From an uncultured Clostridium sp. (GTDB lineage Bacteria; Bacillota; Clostridia; TANB77; CAG-508), in assembly GCA_947648495.1 (NCBI GenBank), contig CANSOA010000002.1, forward strand, positions 166,250 to 230,249: a DNA stretch of 64,000 nt, given 5' to 3'. Positions 3,197 through 35,298 of the stretch are shown piece after piece. Every line of letters starts with the position of its first letter. Positions within the stretch are counted from its first letter, which is position 1. The position numbers and the translations under genes were made by a program. The notes beneath the pieces are model-generated. The model made no database searches and was not told the origin of the DNA. It worked only from the letters and a program-made list of their open reading frames with translations.

Positions 3197-3431
3197 TATA
3201 AAGTGTGTATAAAAAAATAGTACTATAAACGCCACGTCGATATTGTGGCAGTGAAAGTCAAAAGAAATAAGAATTTTTCTTATTTTTAAAATAACTTTGC
3301 TTATTTATATTTTACCATATTTTACATAAACTGTCAAGTGTTTTTAACTTTATATCGTTCCTCCCCACTTTACAAATCTGCATAACTTGTTATATAATAA
3401 ATTCAAATTGAAACGAAAGGATAATAACCAT

Positions 3432-4937
3432 ATGAAATTAAACAAACTTATCTCTTCTGTTGATGTAAAAAATATGATCGGTGATTTAGGTTTAGAGATT
3501 ACCAACATTCATTCCGACTCAAGAAAAATAAAAGAAGGAGGGCTTTTTGTTGCCATTAATGGATTTTCAAAAAATGGTGTTGAATTTATTCCTTCTGCCA
3601 TTGAAAACGGTGCAAAAGCAATCATTGTAGAGCCAGATGTGGACATCTACTCTCTTAATATTGGCTCAGAAATTCCTATTATTTCTGTTCAAAATACAAG
3701 AAAAGCTCTTGCACAAATTGCTTGTGAATTTTATGAACATCCCTCTAAAAAATTAAAACTAATTGGTGTAACTGGAACCAAAGGTAAAACAACGACTACT
3801 TTTATGATAAAATCCATATTAGAGACACATGGTTTTAAAGTAGGATTAATTGGAAGTATCGCTATCTATATAAACGGAGAAAAAATCGAAGATACGGACA
3901 GGACAACTCCTGAAAGTATTGAAATTCAAAAATTTTTAAGCCAAATGGTGGAACAAAAAACAGATGTCGCTATTGTTGAAGTTTCTTCTCAAGCTACCAA
4001 ACTTGACCGTGTAACTGGCTGTGACTTTGATATTGGGGTTTTTACAAATCTTAGCGAAGACCACATTAGCCCCAAAGAGCATCCTAATATGGAAGATTAT
4101 TTTAACTGCAAATTAGAACTTTTAAAAATGGCAAAATATGCTATTATCAATAACGATGATGAAAAACTTAGAACCATTCCAAATCTGTTGCCAAATAAGC
4201 CAATCAAAACCTTTAGCATTGATAATCTTTCGGATATTCAAGCAAATAGCAAGGATGTTGTTATCACCGATTCATATATTGATTTTACAATTGATTACAA
4301 TCATAAGAAAGAAAGAATTGAAGCCACAATTCCGGGAAAATTCAGTGTGTATAATAGCTTAGGAGCTATCGCAGTCGCTTCCTATTTTGACGTTCCAGCA
4401 GAAGAAATCCGCACAAGCTTAAAAGATTTACGTGTACTTGGTAGAAGTGAGCTTGTACCAAATAAATTAGGACTTTCCATTATGATTGATTATGCTCATA
4501 CTCCTTCTAGTTTGGAAAGCATTTTAACCGCTGTCAATTCGTACGCAAAAGGGCGTGTTATTTGTGCTTGGGGCGTTGGCGGTGATCGTGATAGTGCTAA
4601 AAGACCAATTATGGGTGAGATTTCTGGTCGTTTAGCTGATTTTACAGTTCTTATGTCCGATCAAGTTCGCACAGAAGCTCCTTTAAAGATATTAAAAGAA
4701 ATTGAAGTGGGCATTATACCAACTGGAAAACCGTATAAAATTATTGTTGATAGAACAGAAGGAATCCGTTATGCTATTTCAATTGCAAAACCTGATGATA
4801 TTATTGTTATTCCCGGTCTTGGACATGATTTATATTTGGAGAAAAATGGTGTGAAATATCCATATGATGAACGTAAAATAATTAGCAAGTTAATTGATGA
4901 AATGATTGAAAATGGAGAAAAACAATTGTTAAAGTAA
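3432..4937 (+). CDS. murE: UDP-N-acetylmuramoyl-L-alanyl-D-glutamate--2,6-diaminopimelate ligase (MurE)
   Basis: Mur ligase P-loop GVTGTKGKTTTT and full-length MurE-like domain order. Start at MKLNKLISS with an AAAGGA ribosome-binding site. Confidence 0.85.
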   Translation: MKLNKLISSVDVKNMIGDLGLEITNIHSDSRKIKEGGLFVAINGFSKNGVEFIPSAIENGAKAIIVEPDVDIYSLNIGSEIPIISVQNTRKALAQIACEFYEHPSKKLKLIGVTGTKGKTTTTFMIKSILETHGFKVGLIGSIAIYINGEKIEDTDRTTPESIEIQKFLSQMVEQKTDVAIVEVSSQATKLDRVTGCDFDIGVFTNLSEDHISPKEHPNMEDYFNCKLELLKMAKYAIINNDDEKLRTIPNLLPNKPIKTFSIDNLSDIQANSKDVVITDSYIDFTIDYNHKKERIEATIPGKFSVYNSLGAIAVASYFDVPAEEIRTSLKDLRVLGRSELVPNKLGLSIMIDYAHTPSSLESILTAVNSYAKGRVICAWGVGGDRDSAKRPIMGEISGRLADFTVLMSDQVRTEAPLKILKEIEVGIIPTGKPYKIIVDRTEGIRYAISIAKPDDIIVIPGLGHDLYLEKNGVKYPYDERKIISKLIDEMIENGEKQLLK

Positions 4938-19819: not shown

Positions 19820-20539
19820 TTATTTCATAAATTTTTGTATCTCTGATTTTTTTAAATAACGCCAAGTTCCCAATTTTAAATCTTTGACATGTAAGTCTCC
19901 AATTTTACTGCGATGCAAGGCAATGACTTTTTTACCGATTGCCTCACACATTTTTCGAACTTGTCTATTTTTGCCTTCATGAATAGTAATTTCTAGTCTG
20001 GAAATATTCTTCTGTTCCTCGATTTTAAGAATTTTTACTTTCGCAGGTCTTGTAATATAATCTTCGATTTTTACACCGTTTCTCAACATTTCTACTTCTT
20101 CTTGCGTAATTTTTCCGGCAATAGTTGCATTGTAAGTTTTCGTAATTTCATGTTTAGGATGTGTTAATTGATAGACAAAATCTCCATCATTTGTGAGAAT
20201 TAATGTTCCTGATGTATACATATCCAAACGTCCAACTGGAACAATTCTTTGTGGTACTTTGACCAAATCCAAAACACTTTCTCTACCAAATTGATCTTTT
20301 GCTGTTGTAACAACGCCAATTGGTTTATTCAATAAAATATAAATAAAATCATTGGTTTTATTTTCTATTTTCTTTCCATTATACAAAATTTGGTCTGTAT
20401 CTGGATTAACTTTTGTGCCCAATTGTGTGACGACTTTTCCATTTACTGTGATTTTGCCTTGACGAATTAATTCTTCACATTTTCGCCTAGAGGCAATTCC
20501 ATTCGAAGCTAAAAATTTTTGTAGTCTGATTGGTTCCAT
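19820..20539 (-). CDS. rluB: rRNA pseudouridine synthase (RsuA/RluB family)
   Basis: S4 domain (RLQKFLASNGIASRRKCEELIRQGKITVNGK) plus the catalytic VGRLDMYTSGTLILTNDG motif. Start at MEPIRL. Confidence 0.8.
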   Translation of the reverse strand: MEPIRLQKFLASNGIASRRKCEELIRQGKITVNGKVVTQLGTKVNPDTDQILYNGKKIENKTNDFIYILLNKPIGVVTTAKDQFGRESVLDLVKVPQRIVPVGRLDMYTSGTLILTNDGDFVYQLTHPKHEITKTYNATIAGKITQEEVEMLRNGVKIEDYITRPAKVKILKIEEQKNISRLEITIHEGKNRQVRKMCEAIGKKVIALHRSKIGDLHVKDLKLGTWRYLKKSEIQKFMK

Positions 20540-21214: not shown

Positions 21215-22048
21215 TCATGAATTTTCTAATTCTTGTTTTTTCTCCAAAATCTTGCTCATATTTCGATAACGCCCTTCTCGCAATTCTTTTTCGTAGGCTT
21301 CTGGCTCAATATTTTTATCTAAATCTTCCAATTCTTTATCAATATCATATGGAACGCGTACAAACTCAAAACTAAAATCTGCTCCATACTCTTTTGCCCC
21401 ATATTCGCCTTCCAAAATTACATAATAACTCGCTGTTGTTTCTAAAACATTACTATCTTTTTCCTCATCTCTTACGACATTAAAACTATTGCCCACACTT
21501 CCAACATTAATCAAGGTTTTATTATACATTTTGTTCATAAATGGTGCGTGCAAATGTCCATAAATGACAATATCTGCCACTTTGTCTGACATGGTATTTT
21601 CACTTGGTTCAAACATTTGATATTTATTTTCATACGTATCTTCATTGATGATAACAGCTTCTTTTTTCTTTGGACTCGCATGAAACATTCGAATTAGACT
21701 TCCACTCATGTAAAACTCATACGAAAATGGCAAATCCAACAAATATTTTTTTGATTCTTCGGACAACAAGGAATTTAACCAATGCACTCTTTTGTGCATC
21801 AATTCAACTGGAATATTATGCTTGCTAACTTGATAAACCGATGGATCTGTGTCTACATCACAATTTCCTTGCACCACTACTTCACAGTTTTCCTTCACTA
21901 ATTTTACGCATTCTTCCGCATGACAACCTTTTTCCACGATGTCACCCAAACAAAATATTTTGTCAATACTTCGCTTTTGAATATCCTTTAAGGTTGTCTT
22001 TAAAGCCTCCAAATTTCCATGAATATCAGATATAACAGCTATTCTCAT
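21215..22048 (-). CDS. metallophosphoesterase (calcineurin-like)
   Basis: MRIAVISDIHGN...GDIVEKG...GHLH matches the metallophosphoesterase motifs. Confidence 0.7.
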   Translation of the reverse strand: MRIAVISDIHGNLEALKTTLKDIQKRSIDKIFCLGDIVEKGCHAEECVKLVKENCEVVVQGNCDVDTDPSVYQVSKHNIPVELMHKRVHWLNSLLSEESKKYLLDLPFSYEFYMSGSLIRMFHASPKKKEAVIINEDTYENKYQMFEPSENTMSDKVADIVIYGHLHAPFMNKMYNKTLINVGSVGNSFNVVRDEEKDSNVLETTASYYVILEGEYGAKEYGADFSFEFVRVPYDIDKELEDLDKNIEPEAYEKELREGRYRNMSKILEKKQELENS

Positions 22049-23459: not shown

Positions 23460-25835
23460 TTAATCGGTTAATTCTCTTGCTTTTTCTATTTGGTCTACTA
23501 ATTTGTCAATTCGCTCTATTTTTTCCTGACTATATCCCTTTTCCAATGAAATTTCTAAATTTTCTTTTAAAGCTTTTCCCCATTTTGATGAATGAACAAA
23601 TCGATCTGCTTCTTCCTTTTCTCCCATTTCTACCAAAAATCTTCTGTTTACTTTTCCATCTTCTACAATATTGTTTTGATTTTTATAAAACTCCTCTTGT
23701 TTCATCATATAAGTCGCTGCACCATAATTAATCTTAGTTCCCATTTTAGTGCTTTTAAATAATTTTTCAAGAATAATTTTATCTAAGTTTGGCAATGAAA
23801 CTTTGGCTGTGCCATCTAAATATAATTCAATTTCACAGTCTTCATCTAATTCAGAAAATAATTGCCAACGATAAATAGGATCTGTTACATAACGGTTTGC
23901 TTCTTGCTTTTTCGTTGTTTGAGATTTTGTTCTTGTTGTTGTACTATTTTTCTGACCTTGTACCATTTCATTTGAAACATTAAGAGCTTGTATCAAATAC
24001 ATTCTTGCATCATTTTGTGTTCTGATTTGTTCTATATTTTTTCCTGCACCATTGAAACTACTAAATATGAAATTCAATTTCTCCTCATCTGATAAATTCG
24101 AAGTTTTAAGCGCATGACAAGCTTTTTCTAAATCTAATTCTCCTTTGAATAATAGATTCTTGGCATCACGTGGTTTTAGGTGTGCACTTTGGATTAAATC
24201 ATAAATCACTTCCTCGCCATTCCATTCAAGAAGTGTATCGATTGGTAATAAACTAGATTGATATAAATTTTTAAAATCTTCATATTCACTTTCTAATTCG
24301 CATATTTGCATCGCAATTTGCTCTGCAATTTGGCTTTGTTGCTCTGGACTTTTGCCCTTGCTTTTGACTTCACAAAATAACAAACGATAACAATCAAAAT
24401 CTTTTGCTTTTTCTGGTTCCTCTTTTGCCTTTTTATAATATTCCATCAATTTTTCGACACTAATTTCAGTATCAAAATTCTCATTCATGAAAGAAAAATC
24501 AACAACTTTTGATAACTCAACATGGTCTTGCATATACATTTCTATAATATCGCTATTTTGTATAAAGTCATTGTCATATAAATAACACAAATGAATCTGA
24601 TTAATTTTATAGTCTCCTAATCGATGCTTTATGATATTATGAATTTCTTCACGATTTAAAGCATCTAACATTAACAAATGTTCAAAATTAGTTGGATTAA
24701 TTTCTACTAATTTGTTTTTTTCTTCTGTGCTAAAATTCAATAATTCAAAAACTTGCATATGGTTTACTTTTTCAAAACCAAATTCTCCGTTTAACACTTC
24801 GCATTTCATTTTTTCTAAACTACGTTTTGGAAAATAATACTTTCCTTCTTCTGCTGTAACCACTCTTGAAAGGTCTTGTTGTAATTCTTTATATGAATAT
24901 TCTATATCTGCTTTGTCATCTATTGTTTTTAAGTACACTTTTTCATGAATTTTCATTTTTGGGTTTTGTATATGAGATTCAGCATATTCCAAAAATTCTA
25001 CTAACTTTTGCATTTCTTTGACTGAAAAATCTTCTGAAACATCTAATATATCTTTCACGCGATAAGCAGATACAAGCAATAATTTTTCTATATTAAACTT
25101 TTCACAATATTTGTACATAACCTCATCAAATTCAATTCTACATTGATCGATTAATATTTCATATTTTTCCTCATCCGAAATTTGAATTTTTTCCTCTTCT
25201 ATAATGTTATTGCATCTTTTGTTTCCATTCCTAGTAATTATAAATTCTAGAAATTTACCATTTCCAGCATAATAGCATAAATAATCTTCAAAATCATCAA
25301 GACTAGAAATATTAAATATAATATCCATCATTCCTGTATCTTGTAAATCTTTTACAGCTGATAAATTTTCCTGTTTTAGTTTTCTTTGCTTTTCCGAATC
25401 TCCTTTATTTAGGAAAAAATTATTTACTGTCCAAAATTCTTTGATTATAGTTCTATCTCCTCTTTTAGCAATCGCAGGAATTTCTACATCTGAACCATCT
25501 AATAATTTTTTAGCAACTTCATATCTCATTTTTGCTTGCTCAAGAGCTAATTTTTCCTCGACTGTATCCCAATTTTCTCGTTTTCCCAAATTTATATAAT
25601 GTCTTAAATTTTTAGCAGTTAAAAATAATAATCTTTCCTTATCTATTTTATCAGGATTTTGTTGTATAAAATTTTGAATTTCTTGTTTATTCAAATTTAT
25701 GTCTATTCCTTGTGTCACTTGTTCTACATAAGCCTTATCTGTTAAGATATAGTCAAATTGTTCTGAAACAAGCATAATTCCTACTTTTTTTATAATTTCT
25801 CTTATCGTCATTCTATTAATTTCTTTTTTTGACAT
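23460..25835 (-). CDS. large hypothetical cytoplasmic protein (791 aa)
   Basis: A long ORF without TM segments or recognisable catalytic motifs; Glu/Lys-rich. Confidence 0.4.
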   Translation of the reverse strand: MSKKEINRMTIREIIKKVGIMLVSEQFDYILTDKAYVEQVTQGIDINLNKQEIQNFIQQNPDKIDKERLLFLTAKNLRHYINLGKRENWDTVEEKLALEQAKMRYEVAKKLLDGSDVEIPAIAKRGDRTIIKEFWTVNNFFLNKGDSEKQRKLKQENLSAVKDLQDTGMMDIIFNISSLDDFEDYLCYYAGNGKFLEFIITRNGNKRCNNIIEEEKIQISDEEKYEILIDQCRIEFDEVMYKYCEKFNIEKLLLVSAYRVKDILDVSEDFSVKEMQKLVEFLEYAESHIQNPKMKIHEKVYLKTIDDKADIEYSYKELQQDLSRVVTAEEGKYYFPKRSLEKMKCEVLNGEFGFEKVNHMQVFELLNFSTEEKNKLVEINPTNFEHLLMLDALNREEIHNIIKHRLGDYKINQIHLCYLYDNDFIQNSDIIEMYMQDHVELSKVVDFSFMNENFDTEISVEKLMEYYKKAKEEPEKAKDFDCYRLLFCEVKSKGKSPEQQSQIAEQIAMQICELESEYEDFKNLYQSSLLPIDTLLEWNGEEVIYDLIQSAHLKPRDAKNLLFKGELDLEKACHALKTSNLSDEEKLNFIFSSFNGAGKNIEQIRTQNDARMYLIQALNVSNEMVQGQKNSTTTRTKSQTTKKQEANRYVTDPIYRWQLFSELDEDCEIELYLDGTAKVSLPNLDKIILEKLFKSTKMGTKINYGAATYMMKQEEFYKNQNNIVEDGKVNRRFLVEMGEKEEADRFVHSSKWGKALKENLEISLEKGYSQEKIERIDKLVDQIEKARELTD

Positions 25836-27019: not shown

Positions 27020-27421
27020 TTAAATTCTCTCTTTAAATTCTTTTTTTTGTTTTGGTGAAAGCCTTTTGTAATACCATAAAACTTTATCTACTTTTGACAT
27101 TTCAGGTACCAAAAGATGTGAAAGTAATAGACCTATTTCGACCCCATTACGTTTCAAAGAAGCGTTTTCTTTGAAAAATCTCTTTTTCATAATGAAAAAG
27201 ATTTCATTTTCTTGTACTAAGAGTTCTTCTGTTGCATCTTTCGATATTTCAAACTTCCTTGAAACATTGCTTATTATCCATCTAAAAAAAGCTTCAACAT
27301 GTTCCTCCGTACAATAATATTTTGGAATAAATTTTCCTACTACATCACCTGGCATTTCTCCGATTTCTTCCTTTGTTAAATGCCGCCATTCTAACTGCAA
27401 TAACTCCTTTACTTCCATCAT
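27020..27421 (-). CDS. hypothetical protein
   Basis: 133-aa ORF, no motif recognised. Confidence 0.3.
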   Translation of the reverse strand: MMEVKELLQLEWRHLTKEEIGEMPGDVVGKFIPKYYCTEEHVEAFFRWIISNVSRKFEISKDATEELLVQENEIFFIMKKRFFKENASLKRNGVEIGLLLSHLLVPEMSKVDKVLWYYKRLSPKQKKEFKERI

Positions 27422-27587
27422 ATCCTCCTTAATTATAAAGAATGCATAAAAACAAAAAAGTTTTGTAGTAATTTTATCATATAATTTTTTTTATTTCAAG
27501 AGTAATTTTTCATTTTAATAATTAAAATTATGTGTTAAACTATGGGGGAAATTTGAGAAAAAATAGGGGAAAAAATAGGGAAAAAAT

Positions 27588-27676
27588 GGGGACGGGGACA
27601 GTCTTGAAATCTTATTTTCTCGTTTTTTCTCATTTTTTCTTTATTTTTCTATCTAATTAAGATTGTCCCCGTCCCC
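27588..27676. repeat. 89-nt palindromic MITE-like element, copy 1 (GGGGACGGGGACA ... TGTCCCCGTCCCC)
   Basis: 13-bp GC-rich terminal inverted repeat enclosing a 63-nt loop of GAGAAAA-type octamers. Preceded by (A6)TAGGGG repeats. Confidence 0.8.
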
Positions 27677-27920
27677 ATTTCTCAATTTTTAAAAACAAAA
27701 ATAAAAACAAAAACAAAAATACCTCTTTAAAAAACTATTTCCTTTTACTCCATACTATCATTTCTTAAATAAAACCAACTTTAGTTTTCTTCTACTATCC
27801 TCTAGAAACTATTCTTTCAAATATTTATTTTTTTTATTTAAAAAATTTATTAAAAATAGATTAAATTGTATTTTTCAGTTTTTTTTTGGGGGGAGTTTTT
27901 AGGTCTTAGGGGGGTCTTAG

Positions 27921-28009
27921 GGGGACGGGGACACTCTTAATTAGATAGAAAAATAAAGAAAAAGTGAGAAAAAACGAGAAAATAAGATTTCAAGACTGTC
28001 CCCGTCCCC
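27921..28009. repeat. 89-nt palindromic MITE-like element, copy 2 (inverted relative to copy 1)
   Basis: Near-identical to the reverse complement of copy 1 (2-3 mismatches). Preceded by a G6/G5 tract cluster. Confidence 0.8.
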
Positions 28010-28108
28010 AACCCACCAAACCAACTTTTTATAACTTTTAGTCATTTAACTTATATCATTAACTTAATTTCAAAAAAATTCGCAAAATAAATTTTACAAA
28101 TAAATAAT

Positions 28109-28837
28109 CTAAAACAACTTCTCTAACTTATATTCCTTCTCCAATTTTTCATTCAAATAAATATTTGCAACAAGTTCCAATTCCTTCCTACATTTTTCCG
28201 ACAACTCAAACGAAAAAATTTTCTTTGCATCTGCAAGCATGATATATTTTATTGCAGTTTGTGTTGCCTCCGACACTTCAACTGCACCCGTATCTTGTTT
28301 TGCGCAAGCTTTGCATTTAAATCCATTATCCCTAAAACTAAAATGTGTCATATTTTCTTTCGTTTTACAAGAAACACATTCTCGTATATTCGGCAAAAAA
28401 CCAATAATTTTAAGAAGCCTTAACTTAAATACCGTCGTAATAAAATCCAAGTCTTTCTGTGTCTCGGAAATTGCATACAATGTATTTAAAAAAAGCTTCA
28501 ACGTATGATACGAATTTTGATTTTCTGTTGTCACATCATTCACAATTTTTGTGATATAAGTCGCATATGTAAGCTTATCCAAATCCGTTCGGATATTGTA
28601 AAACATCTCAATTGTCTCACATGAATTCATGGAATAATTTTCACCACTTTTAAACAACATATATTCTCCAAAACACAAAAATTGAGTGCCTGCAAGCAAG
28701 AGACTTTTCGGTCTTCTGGCTCCCCTTGCACTGCACCCAATTTTTCCTAAATTTGGCGTCAAAATCGTCAGCATTTTATCATAATCACCCATATTGTTTT
28801 CAATTAAAATTACTCCATTTATCTTAATTTGTTTCAT
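28109..28837 (-). CDS. recO: DNA repair protein RecO
   Basis: RecO N-terminal OB fold plus the C-terminal Cys4 zinc motif (CVSC...CKAC). AAGGGAAG ribosome-binding site. Confidence 0.8.
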   Translation of the reverse strand: MKQIKINGVILIENNMGDYDKMLTILTPNLGKIGCSARGARRPKSLLLAGTQFLCFGEYMLFKSGENYSMNSCETIEMFYNIRTDLDKLTYATYITKIVNDVTTENQNSYHTLKLFLNTLYAISETQKDLDFITTVFKLRLLKIIGFLPNIRECVSCKTKENMTHFSFRDNGFKCKACAKQDTGAVEVSEATQTAIKYIMLADAKKIFSFELSEKCRKELELVANIYLNEKLEKEYKLEKLF

Positions 28838-34841: not shown

Positions 34842-35066
34842 TAAAACACCTGCCTTGCTTAAATTTTTGCTTATTTATTTATATTCAAATACACAAGTTT
34901 TATTACAATTTTAAATATGACATTCAAATGTCATATTTAAAATTTAGGTTTTGTCAGATTTATTATTTTTATTTTTGAGCTTTTTGGGGGAGGATTTTTT
35001 GAGGGTTTTTGGGGGAGGATTTTTTTGAGTTTATTTTTGAGTTTTTTTGAGATTTTTGATTTTTTT

Positions 35067-35155
35067 GGGGACGGGGACACTCTTATGTTTATAGAAAAAT
35101 CGAGAAAAACTGAGCAAAAATGAGAAAATGAGATTTTAAGAGTGTCCCCGTCCCC
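35067..35155. repeat. 89-nt palindromic MITE-like element, copy 3 (perfect 19-bp stem GGGGACGGGGACACTCTTA)
   Basis: Same stem and GAGAAAA-type loop as copies 1 and 2. Preceded at 34981-35066 by a TTTTTGGGGGAGG/TTTTTGAG repeat array. Confidence 0.8.
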
Positions 35156-35298
35156 AAATTAATTACCAAATTAAATTACCCAATTACCCAAATTACAAAA
35201 TTACAAATTATCCCCAAATTATTTTTTAAAAAATATTTCCTAAAAAATTCTGAACAAAAAATAAAATATGACATTTTGATGTCATATTTTATTTTATC

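Follow-up and report, generated by a model that had tools for sequence, protein, structure and literature searches.

Small palindromic repeats have been much studied in Proteobacteria and streptococci but barely in the uncultured AT-rich Clostridia that are common in gut metagenomes. Some insertion sequences target such palindromes: IS1397 and ISKpn1 insert into the loops of repetitive extragenic palindromic (REP) sequences, and the IS110/IS1111 family inserts into REP or attC sites. Among the described repeats, REPINs are REP doublets which form hairpins, occur in Pseudomonas and enterobacteria and are moved by RAYT transposases (PMC3116915, PMC3337134). Miniature inverted-repeat transposable elements, or MITEs, have target-site duplications as part of their definition and usually possess a recognisable parent insertion sequence (PMC10969869). 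The present analysis concerns a 64-kb window (64,000 nt of contig CANSOA010000002.1 from an uncultured Clostridium sp.) which carries a pair of inverted 89-nt elements next to recO; the surrounding genes indicate a spore-forming member of the Clostridia with 30% G+C as host genome. In our view the 89-nt units probably represent a mobile DNA element that is non-autonomous, of foldback type and akin to MITEs and REPINs.

A repeat search of the window returned two inverted arms of 90 nt each (27587-27676 and 27921-28010) with a complementarity of 98% and a separation of 244 nt, and thereby bore out the inverted pair of 89-nt elements at 27588-28009 described in an earlier note on this DNA. Compared in the same orientation, copy 1 and copy 2 are mismatched at two of the 89 positions, namely 14 and 44. 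A hairpin is present within each arm, composed of a G+C-rich stem of 18-22 bp (GGGGACGGGGACASTCTT) and a loop of 49-53 nt without structure; these values replace the 13-bp stem and 63-nt loop given in the earlier note, where the loop was furthermore read as a series of octamers, the periodicity found in the window elements being about 10 nt. The stem of the arms has the form GGGGACGGGGACA(G/C)TCTT together with its complement, and the loop consists nearly entirely of purines on one strand. Relative to shuffled controls the single arms fold strongly both as RNA (-29 to -39 kcal/mol, z -6 to -9) and as DNA (z -3.4 to -7.7). The 12-mer GGGGACGGGGAC has six exact occurrences in the window, all of them inside three elements, against a chance expectation of 0.21 allowing up to two mismatches. 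Two of the six delimit the third element (35067-35155), which had been overlooked in the earlier note.

Outside the window approximately 20 further members were detected, distributed over six or more related assemblies of AT-rich Clostridia; the stretch of terminus that they share without change is 13-18 nt long. They include three metagenome-assembled genomes (MAGs; CANEDP01, CAOJUE01 and CAOJGX01) with matching termini and interiors that are either alike or different, the contig OLOX01051260 (L054) and the loci L071 and L084 (the L numbers designate the sequences compared). Together with the third window copy and the invariance of the termini, these members uphold the former description of the pair as part of a true repeat family. 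The terminal inverted repeats span 18-19 bp and have the form T-GGGGACGGGGACA(C/G)TCTT, of which the outer 13 nt are invariant in nearly all arms of the approximately 20 members. T precedes GGGG in 14 of 19 copies, and A follows CCCC in 16 of 19. Stem position 14 is either C or G and is chosen independently in each arm, which explains the frequent C.C or G.G mismatches. The interiors fall into discrete lengths of 4-5, 53, 55 and 66-68 nt: the shortest occur in L054 and L071, the 53-nt interior is the window type with its unstructured homopurine loop, and the 66-68-nt interior folds into a nearly full-length hairpin. Element sizes range from 40 to 111 nt across the family, which is below the approximately 300 bp taken as the upper size of a MITE. 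Half-sites beside full elements are common ('+ + -' arrangements), and mosaic as well as partial copies were also found. The sole open reading frame (ORF) overlapping the elements encodes 42 aa from a GTG start and is unsupported.

The scan for complete elements covered one genome per species. Three copies stand in the 64-kb window and 2 to approximately 10 loci in each representative MAG, an exact-terminus scan of the species-representative genomes having returned up to 6 loci per MAG; matches in high-G+C genomes proved to be other hairpins. The MAGs with elements share no more than a distant relationship with the clade of the window (RuvA 72% identical), and the distribution of the family is accordingly patchy. 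Half-site scans of JGI metagenomes (24 loci) and viral sequences (2 loci) gave chance matches in coding or unrelated DNA with the exception of L054, and nothing relevant was found in the plasmid and phage collections searched. A literature search with the terminus sequence returned unrelated eukaryotic and viral primers only; judged by this search we found no description of the element sequence or of the family, which would accordingly appear to be new to the literature.

Unrelated hairpin-repeat families of other phyla likewise end in GGGGACGGGGAC...GTCCCCGTCCCC, some with extra nested GGGGAC units. Such hairpins were seen in Firmicutes (L006, L012, L007, L022, L031, L027, L028 and L035), in Actinomycetes (L005, L009 and L010) and in a proteobacterium (L011, L013, L018, L024 and L030). 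The shared ends may reflect ascertainment through the search pattern or a recurrent motif.

Every copy of the family is intergenic, the majority being located between co-directional genes and about half of them 8-60 nt past a stop codon. The purine loop is directed toward the transcript in five cases and the reverse applies to four, so there is no orientation bias. Where the anatomy is readable, the element lies past the upstream gene's own terminator and ahead of the next promoter, and canonical terminators precede many copies. The neighbours are mainly housekeeping or assorted genes, among them those for GyrA, FtsH, Dus, Ogt, a sigma factor, GerM, MatE and a WYL regulator, as well as recO and clpB.

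An empty and a filled site could be compared behind one and the same recombinase gene, where L083 and L084 contain an intact TATGACATAAAAATGTCA hairpin, whereas L033 reads TATG-element-CATAAAAAATGTCA with no duplication, the element being placed at the dyad centre of the pre-existing palindrome. Over the family at large, the flanks of 4 of 20 elements make up a perfect palindrome, 5 bp or longer, with the insertion point at its centre, compared to 0.2% of nearby control positions (p ~1e-7). With palindromes of at least 3 bp these values amount to 6 of 20 elements and 2.2% of control positions. We suppose that the termini are probably recognised by their sequence through a trans-acting transposase or recombinase encoded elsewhere, since they are constant while the loops diverge, without compensatory changes. 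The preference for palindrome centres, taken together with the absence of a target-site duplication, suggests that the mobilising enzyme may act on hairpin, cruciform or otherwise symmetric DNA.

A second palindrome family, AAATATGACAT-N4-ATGTCATATTT, with a stem of 11 bp and a loop of 4 nt, is plentiful in the same genomes. Its hairpins often stand directly past stop codons or are paired approximately 55 nt apart, and in L033 the G+C-rich element is inserted inside one of them. Two AAATATGACAT hairpins in the window (34911-34940 and 35262-35291) enclose a block of approximately 330 nt that holds copy 3, where the sister species has one. The idea that these two hairpins form part of the element was rejected, as they belong to a separate and abundant family. 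Further examples were located in L015 (5808-5835, 6756-6783), L021 (1821-1848, 2685-2710, 2788-2815), L033 (2166-2250), L038 (1291-1375) and L071 (2825-2852) as well as past the recombinase gene in L083 and L084.

In its architecture the element appears closest to the REPINs (PMC3337134). Both possess inverted conserved arms around a less conserved spacer of several discrete lengths and form one long hairpin of approximately 90 nt; both are intergenic, bear A and T runs at their borders, occur in mosaic clusters without target-site duplication and are often conserved in place between species. The forms with a 4-5-nt loop furthermore resemble the 'long palindromic singlets' of REPINs, from which the centre has been removed and which are left by excision (PMC3337134). 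However, a REP arm includes a short imperfect palindrome within itself as well as a conserved head, whereas the arm GGGGACGGGGACASTCTT lacks these; as read from the sequence it contains no internal stem except GAC-A-GTC, which is restricted to the G variant. The host likewise differs (Clostridia), there are approximately 10 copies per genome instead of hundreds, no IS200-like Y1 transposase of the RAYT kind was seen among the approximately 36 element-adjacent proteins, and the spacer of the 89-nt subfamily is an unstructured homopurine/homopyrimidine tract, not a hairpin.

With the bacterial MITEs (Correia, RUP, ERIC, Chunjie; PMC10969869) the family shares the small size, the non-coding, multicopy and intergenic nature, the perfect terminal inverted repeats, the conserved ends around a variable interior and the occurrence of partial and nested copies. 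In contrast to MITEs, neither a duplication nor a parent insertion sequence was seen here, and insertion takes place at the centre of a palindrome and not at a short target such as TA. Insertion in the centre or arm of an extragenic palindrome would be shared with the palindrome-targeting insertion sequences, of which the IS110 family causes little or no target duplication. These are nevertheless autonomous, transposase-coding and 1-1.5 kb in length, and no such gene with the present termini was found in the window or the related loci scanned. Finally, SPRITE and other terminator-like repeats of Streptococcus pneumoniae (PMC10969869) resemble the family as dispersed stable stem-loops after genes, but the elements described here mostly have no U-tract and their loops are far too long for an intrinsic terminator. 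The family belongs to a known class, the small palindromic mobile repeats, from whose described members it departs in having neither the target duplication of MITEs nor the intra-arm palindrome of REP sequences.

An identical RecO is encoded in six other assemblies of the window species. The region is spanned in three of them (L039, L042 and L043), and these, like the window, contain both elements and the spacer in one orientation; the spanning strains differ solely by one unit of approximately 10 nt, one 12-nt deletion (two AAAAAC units) and the lengths of element-adjacent homopolymers. The remaining three of the six assemblies break in or just past copy 2 (L040 10930-10961; contig ends of L041 and L044), and one contig broken at copy 2 has a terminal poly-G run, as is typical of sequencing artefacts. 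Copy 2 is constant in all strains, whereas copy 1 varies at five positions, at three of which the window copy 1 has the base of copy 2. This pattern of variation indicates gene conversion between the inverted copies.

In the closest sister species (L071; RecO 92% identical) the gap downstream of recO measures 92 bp and is free of elements, compared to 687 bp for the intergenic gap which holds the pair in the window. No element is present at its clpB-yabP junction either, where a single AAATATGACAT hairpin and an extra gene were found, and the loci of the remaining relatives (approximately 150 kb; RecO 79-91% identical) did not contain any family members. The pair is best interpreted as two copies situated at a hot spot of synteny change, in a gap that tolerates insertions, and partly homogenised by gene conversion.

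Several results weigh against a mobile element and have to be set beside this interpretation. The flanks were checked for direct repeats of 2-9 bp, and no consistent target-site duplication emerged, the flanks often being inverted-complementary. Clean comparisons of empty and filled sites amount to a single case, and the copy number per representative genome is low with up to approximately 10 exact copies. Insertion polymorphism was not observed among the spanning assemblies of the window species. No transposase or RAYT was identified among the approximately 36 element-adjacent proteins scanned, and neither a transposase nor an autonomous copy, i.e. a distant pair of the same termini, was detected in the window or in approximately 0.45 Mb of related loci. 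The conservation of several elements in place between species, moreover, could reflect selection for a host function and not mobility. The label 'MITE-like' given in the earlier note holds for the terminal inverted repeats, the small size, the non-coding nature, the dispersed intergenic occurrence, the absence from orthologous sites of the sister species and the one empty/filled site, but not for the target-site duplication, and no cognate transposase came to light among these proteins and loci. The same note had proposed a search for a transposase, which came back empty from the neighbours and loci just mentioned, and a check of copy number and polymorphism, which returned copies in related species and their absence from sister sites but no polymorphism among the strains of the window species.

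The main alternative to a mobile element, in view of the elements retained in place behind stop codons, is a host-selected hairpin function, which we nevertheless consider unlikely. The elements would then be REP-like hairpins maintained by the host as a barrier against 3'-exonucleases, as a brake on read-through or as an operon insulator, which are selected in place and whose mobility is ancient or irrelevant. The elements of L004 and L026 are orthologous, and a GerM-like gene bears an element 13-34 nt past its stop codon in L004, L026 and L054, i.e. in three species whose coding DNA is approximately 71% identical, with a loop of 68 nt in L004 and L026 and of 4 nt in L054. The element is furthermore kept in L033, L038 and L084 despite a change of the adjoining genes. 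A host function also accords with stems that are very stable for a genome of 30% G+C and with the location of approximately half of the copies shortly past a stop codon, and the random orientation would fit a function independent of orientation.

If transcription reads through from recO, copy 2 is predicted to pair with copy 1 in a near-perfect duplex of approximately 90 bp (-181 kcal/mol, z -15), and this double-stranded RNA would likewise be compatible with a host function. However, the stem is invariant and shows no covariation, and position 14 is often mismatched (C.C or G.G). Many copies lie behind a canonical terminator and are hence probably little transcribed, and most relatives with the same genes do not have the element. 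The U-tract is mostly missing as well. The earlier statement that no U-tract follows on either strand does not apply to copy 1, which alone among the window copies is followed on the minus (transcribed) strand by a U-rich tract (AUUUUUUCCCUAUUUUUU); its conclusion that the elements are not simple terminators was confirmed, since consensus scans called no terminator-like sites at either locus, and loops of 49-53 nt are too long. For a mobile element the same strong hairpins, the duplex of approximately 90 bp upon recO read-through and unstable short tandem repeats at the borders are predicted as side effects.

We attach very little probability to the proposal that the elements are genes of a small structured RNA which would sequester a protein, or pair with targets, by means of its purine-rich loop. 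The loop sequence is conserved within the 89-nt subfamily (12-13 differences per 89 positions in the window copies), the folding is strong, and GAGAAAA-type repeats would be exposed in the single-stranded loop. On the other hand, no match to Rfam reached the gathering score, generic hairpin hits remaining at 19-35 bits compared to thresholds of 64-211. In the family alignment only 17 terminal pairs are conserved, and as all of them are invariant there are no compensatory changes. Neither a promoter nor a terminator of its own accompanies the element, the loop is dispensable as it comprises only 4-5 nt in L054 and L071, and owing to the random orientation half of the copies would present the complementary pyrimidine loop. 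Taking furthermore into account the many copies past canonical terminators, the 'structured RNA' offered as an option in the earlier note is not sustained.

The arrangement of the pair, in which inverted repeats of 90 nt surround a short segment immediately upstream of a gene, also recalls an invertible switch that flips the 244-bp spacer and toggles the neighbouring gene (phase variation). The contig breaks at the repeat in three of six assemblies and the differences in homopolymer length and unit number inside the segment between strains would agree with such a switch, to which we assign next to no probability. The spacer has the same orientation in the window and in the three other spanning assemblies and contains no promoter-like site; the promoter predicted for the 133-aa gene is positioned downstream of both elements, which places the pair between recO and this promoter. 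For these reasons, orientation and promoterless spacer, the pair is not considered an invertible switch, and this candidate was rejected. In addition, no recognisable recombinase domain is encoded within approximately 10 kb, short-read assemblies are expected to break at 89-nt repeats, and other members of the dispersed family occur singly.

A synteny break or an indel between species was noticed at every assessable element. L021 and L034 differ by an arrangement of element, unrelated gene and element, with one element inverted relative to its flank; the two species carry it in opposite orientations at an orthologous site. In L071 a block of 550 nt (19533-20082) consisting of an hsp20 gene and a short-loop element of 40 nt is precisely missing at window positions 21215-21223, the right edge of the block being the outer end of the element; between L015 and L032 the synteny stops at the element. 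These observations, the block of recombinase and element in L033, the half-sites beside full elements and the short-loop forms, which as imperfect palindromes of 40 bp have the size of a serine-recombinase att site, would suit recombination sites that bound variable cassettes (like serine-recombinase att, attC or pdif sites) and allow adjacent genes to be gained and lost. This explanation is nonetheless improbable in our opinion. The neighbours are mostly housekeeping genes (gyrA, ftsH, dus, recO, clpB), and arrays, an integrase and attC core motifs are all missing. Long gaps at operon boundaries gather indels and selfish insertions alike, and therefore the association may be indirect.

An identity as integron attC was rejected because the R''/R' core sites (RYYYAAC / GTTRRRY) are missing, the termini being GGGGAC.../...GTCCCC, and no arrays or integrase exist at any locus. 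An att site of a large serine recombinase was rejected as well, as the pairing occurs in L033 only and no element is found at this junction in the homologs of L083, L084 and L085; since close homologs of the adjacent recombinase (87% and 77% identical) have no neighbouring element, the adjacency in L033 was judged coincidental. The gene of this recombinase (L033 4328-6319; L083; L084; L085) adjoins a tRNA gene and forms a lone block of approximately 2 kb in L033 and L084. In L083 a toxin-antitoxin pair, a Y-family polymerase and a helix-turn-helix (HTH) gene stand ahead of it, which suggests an integrated mobile element. In L085 it has the tRNA gene on one side and a CRISPR-Cas operon on the other; according to Pfam this operon encodes Cas6, a Cas_CXXC_CXXC-domain protein, DevR, Cas5d and a Cas3-like helicase.

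The interpretation as a non-autonomous mobile element can be sharpened to a novel foldback type, a version we hold to be quite unlikely. Its insertion would cause no duplication and would take place exactly in the dyad centre of AT-rich palindromes, for instance terminator-type hairpins, its invariant G+C-rich ends of 19 bp would be recognised by an enzyme of hairpin or cruciform DNA, and it would help to create gene-swap boundaries between related gut Clostridia, the 40-bp forms representing excision footprints or minimal recognition sites.

The G+C-rich ends of 19 bp in a genome of 30% G+C provide a searchable signature, which makes the family tractable for finding the mover enzyme in Firmicutes. 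In practical terms, the elements disrupt short-read assemblies (three of six contigs end there) and flag changes of gene order between species, and inverted copies are predicted to make long double-stranded RNA from read-through transcripts. If the elements are only selfish DNA, they are an ordinary annotation item.

Three further candidates were discarded. A composite element of 424 bp with 90-nt ends is contradicted by the unique spacer and outer flanks, of which no second copy was present in the sequences compared. A CIRCE/HrcA operator had been considered owing to CACTC-N9-GAGTG in the short form of L071 and the neighbours clpB, hsp20 and ftsH, but only the 5-nt core matches, the spacing suits one copy, the elements are situated 3' of the heat-shock genes and the motif is missing from the window. 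Ends of the Tn3 type (GGGG...) were dismissed since the inverted part comprises only 18-20 nt and there is no 5-bp duplication.

The features of the two loci in the window are compiled in the following table. Around the pair all genes (era, yqzL, recO, hpf, the SASP gene, yabP and yqfD) are encoded on the minus strand, and the Pfam assignments support the identification of the gene beside the pair as recO in the earlier note.

Features of the element loci (positions refer to the window; strand given where assigned)
Feature	Position	Strand	Description
Element copy 1	27588-27676		89-nt foldback; stem GGGGACGGGGACAGTCTT / AAGATTGTCCCCGTCCCC; loop pyrimidine-rich on the plus strand and purine-rich on the transcribed minus strand
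Element copy 2	27921-28009		Copy 1 in reverse complement; stem position 14 mismatched (C.C); invariant among the strains examined
Element copy 3	35067-35155		Oriented like copy 2; 12 of 89 positions differ from copy 2; between clpB-like gene and yabP
Spacer	27677-27920		244 bp, A+T-rich, unique; no predicted promoter; one orientation in all strains
recO	28109-28837	-	Transcriptionally upstream of the pair; Pfam RecO_N and RecO_C
133-aa ORF	27020-27421	-	Downstream of the pair; without family match; 27% identical to the sister-species gene at that position
Likely sigma-70-type promoter of the 133-aa gene	27471-27499	-	TTGAAA-17-TAAAAT with upstream TG; 10 of 12 matches
Tandem array GAAAAAATAGGG x3.2	27557-27592		Reaches into the left terminus of copy 1
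Tandem array AAAAAC x4.8	27691-27719		Begins 15 nt from copy 1; 12 nt (two units) shorter in strains L042 and L043
T-run and G-run, then GGTCTTAGGGG x2.1 array	27880-27924		Reaches the terminus of copy 2; strains vary by one unit of ~10 nt and in homopolymer lengths
Tandem arrays, 25-nt TTTTTGAGGCTTTTTGGGGGAGGAT x2.2 and TTTTTTTGAG x4.8	34972-35067		Adjoin copy 3 at its left terminus
Tandem arrays CCAAATTAAATTA x2.6 and AAATTACA x4.2	35154-35207		Begin within the right terminus of copy 3

Of the 12 strongest tandem-repeat rows in the window, eight adjoin the three elements, with units of 6-25 nt, and the border arrays take in the terminal G or C runs of the elements. The variation of their unit number between strains is consistent with slippage at a stalled hairpin. 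Tandem-array flanks were encountered in the window species only, plus one case in L001, and were consequently rejected as a feature of the whole family. The sole G-quadruplex-type motif of the window (27566-27597, plus strand; four G runs of at least 3 with loops of up to 12 nt) covers copy 1's left terminus together with the adjoining flank, and copy 2 has a comparable cluster of G runs ahead of it (27888-27930), in which one loop is longer.

Synteny breaks off on the 3' side of recO (window 27020-28108 compared with L071-L082). In the relatives recO is followed either directly by hpf, by a gene for a dCTP deaminase, an Amidase_6 or a GltD-like protein, or by small ORFs and a leucine-rich repeat (LRR) protein. 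Downstream of the SASP gene, an ORF of 791 aa without Pfam match (23460-25835, minus strand) is kept in the sister species (790 aa). Moreover, a conserved leader of approximately 90 nt (ttagtcatcggaggacagggcatcgcaatgcc...) precedes an operon of cytidylate-kinase-like and MatE genes in three species (L033 approximately 4200-4320, minus strand; L038 approximately 3380-3450; L084 1905-2000) and could be a riboswitch or another cis-regulatory RNA.

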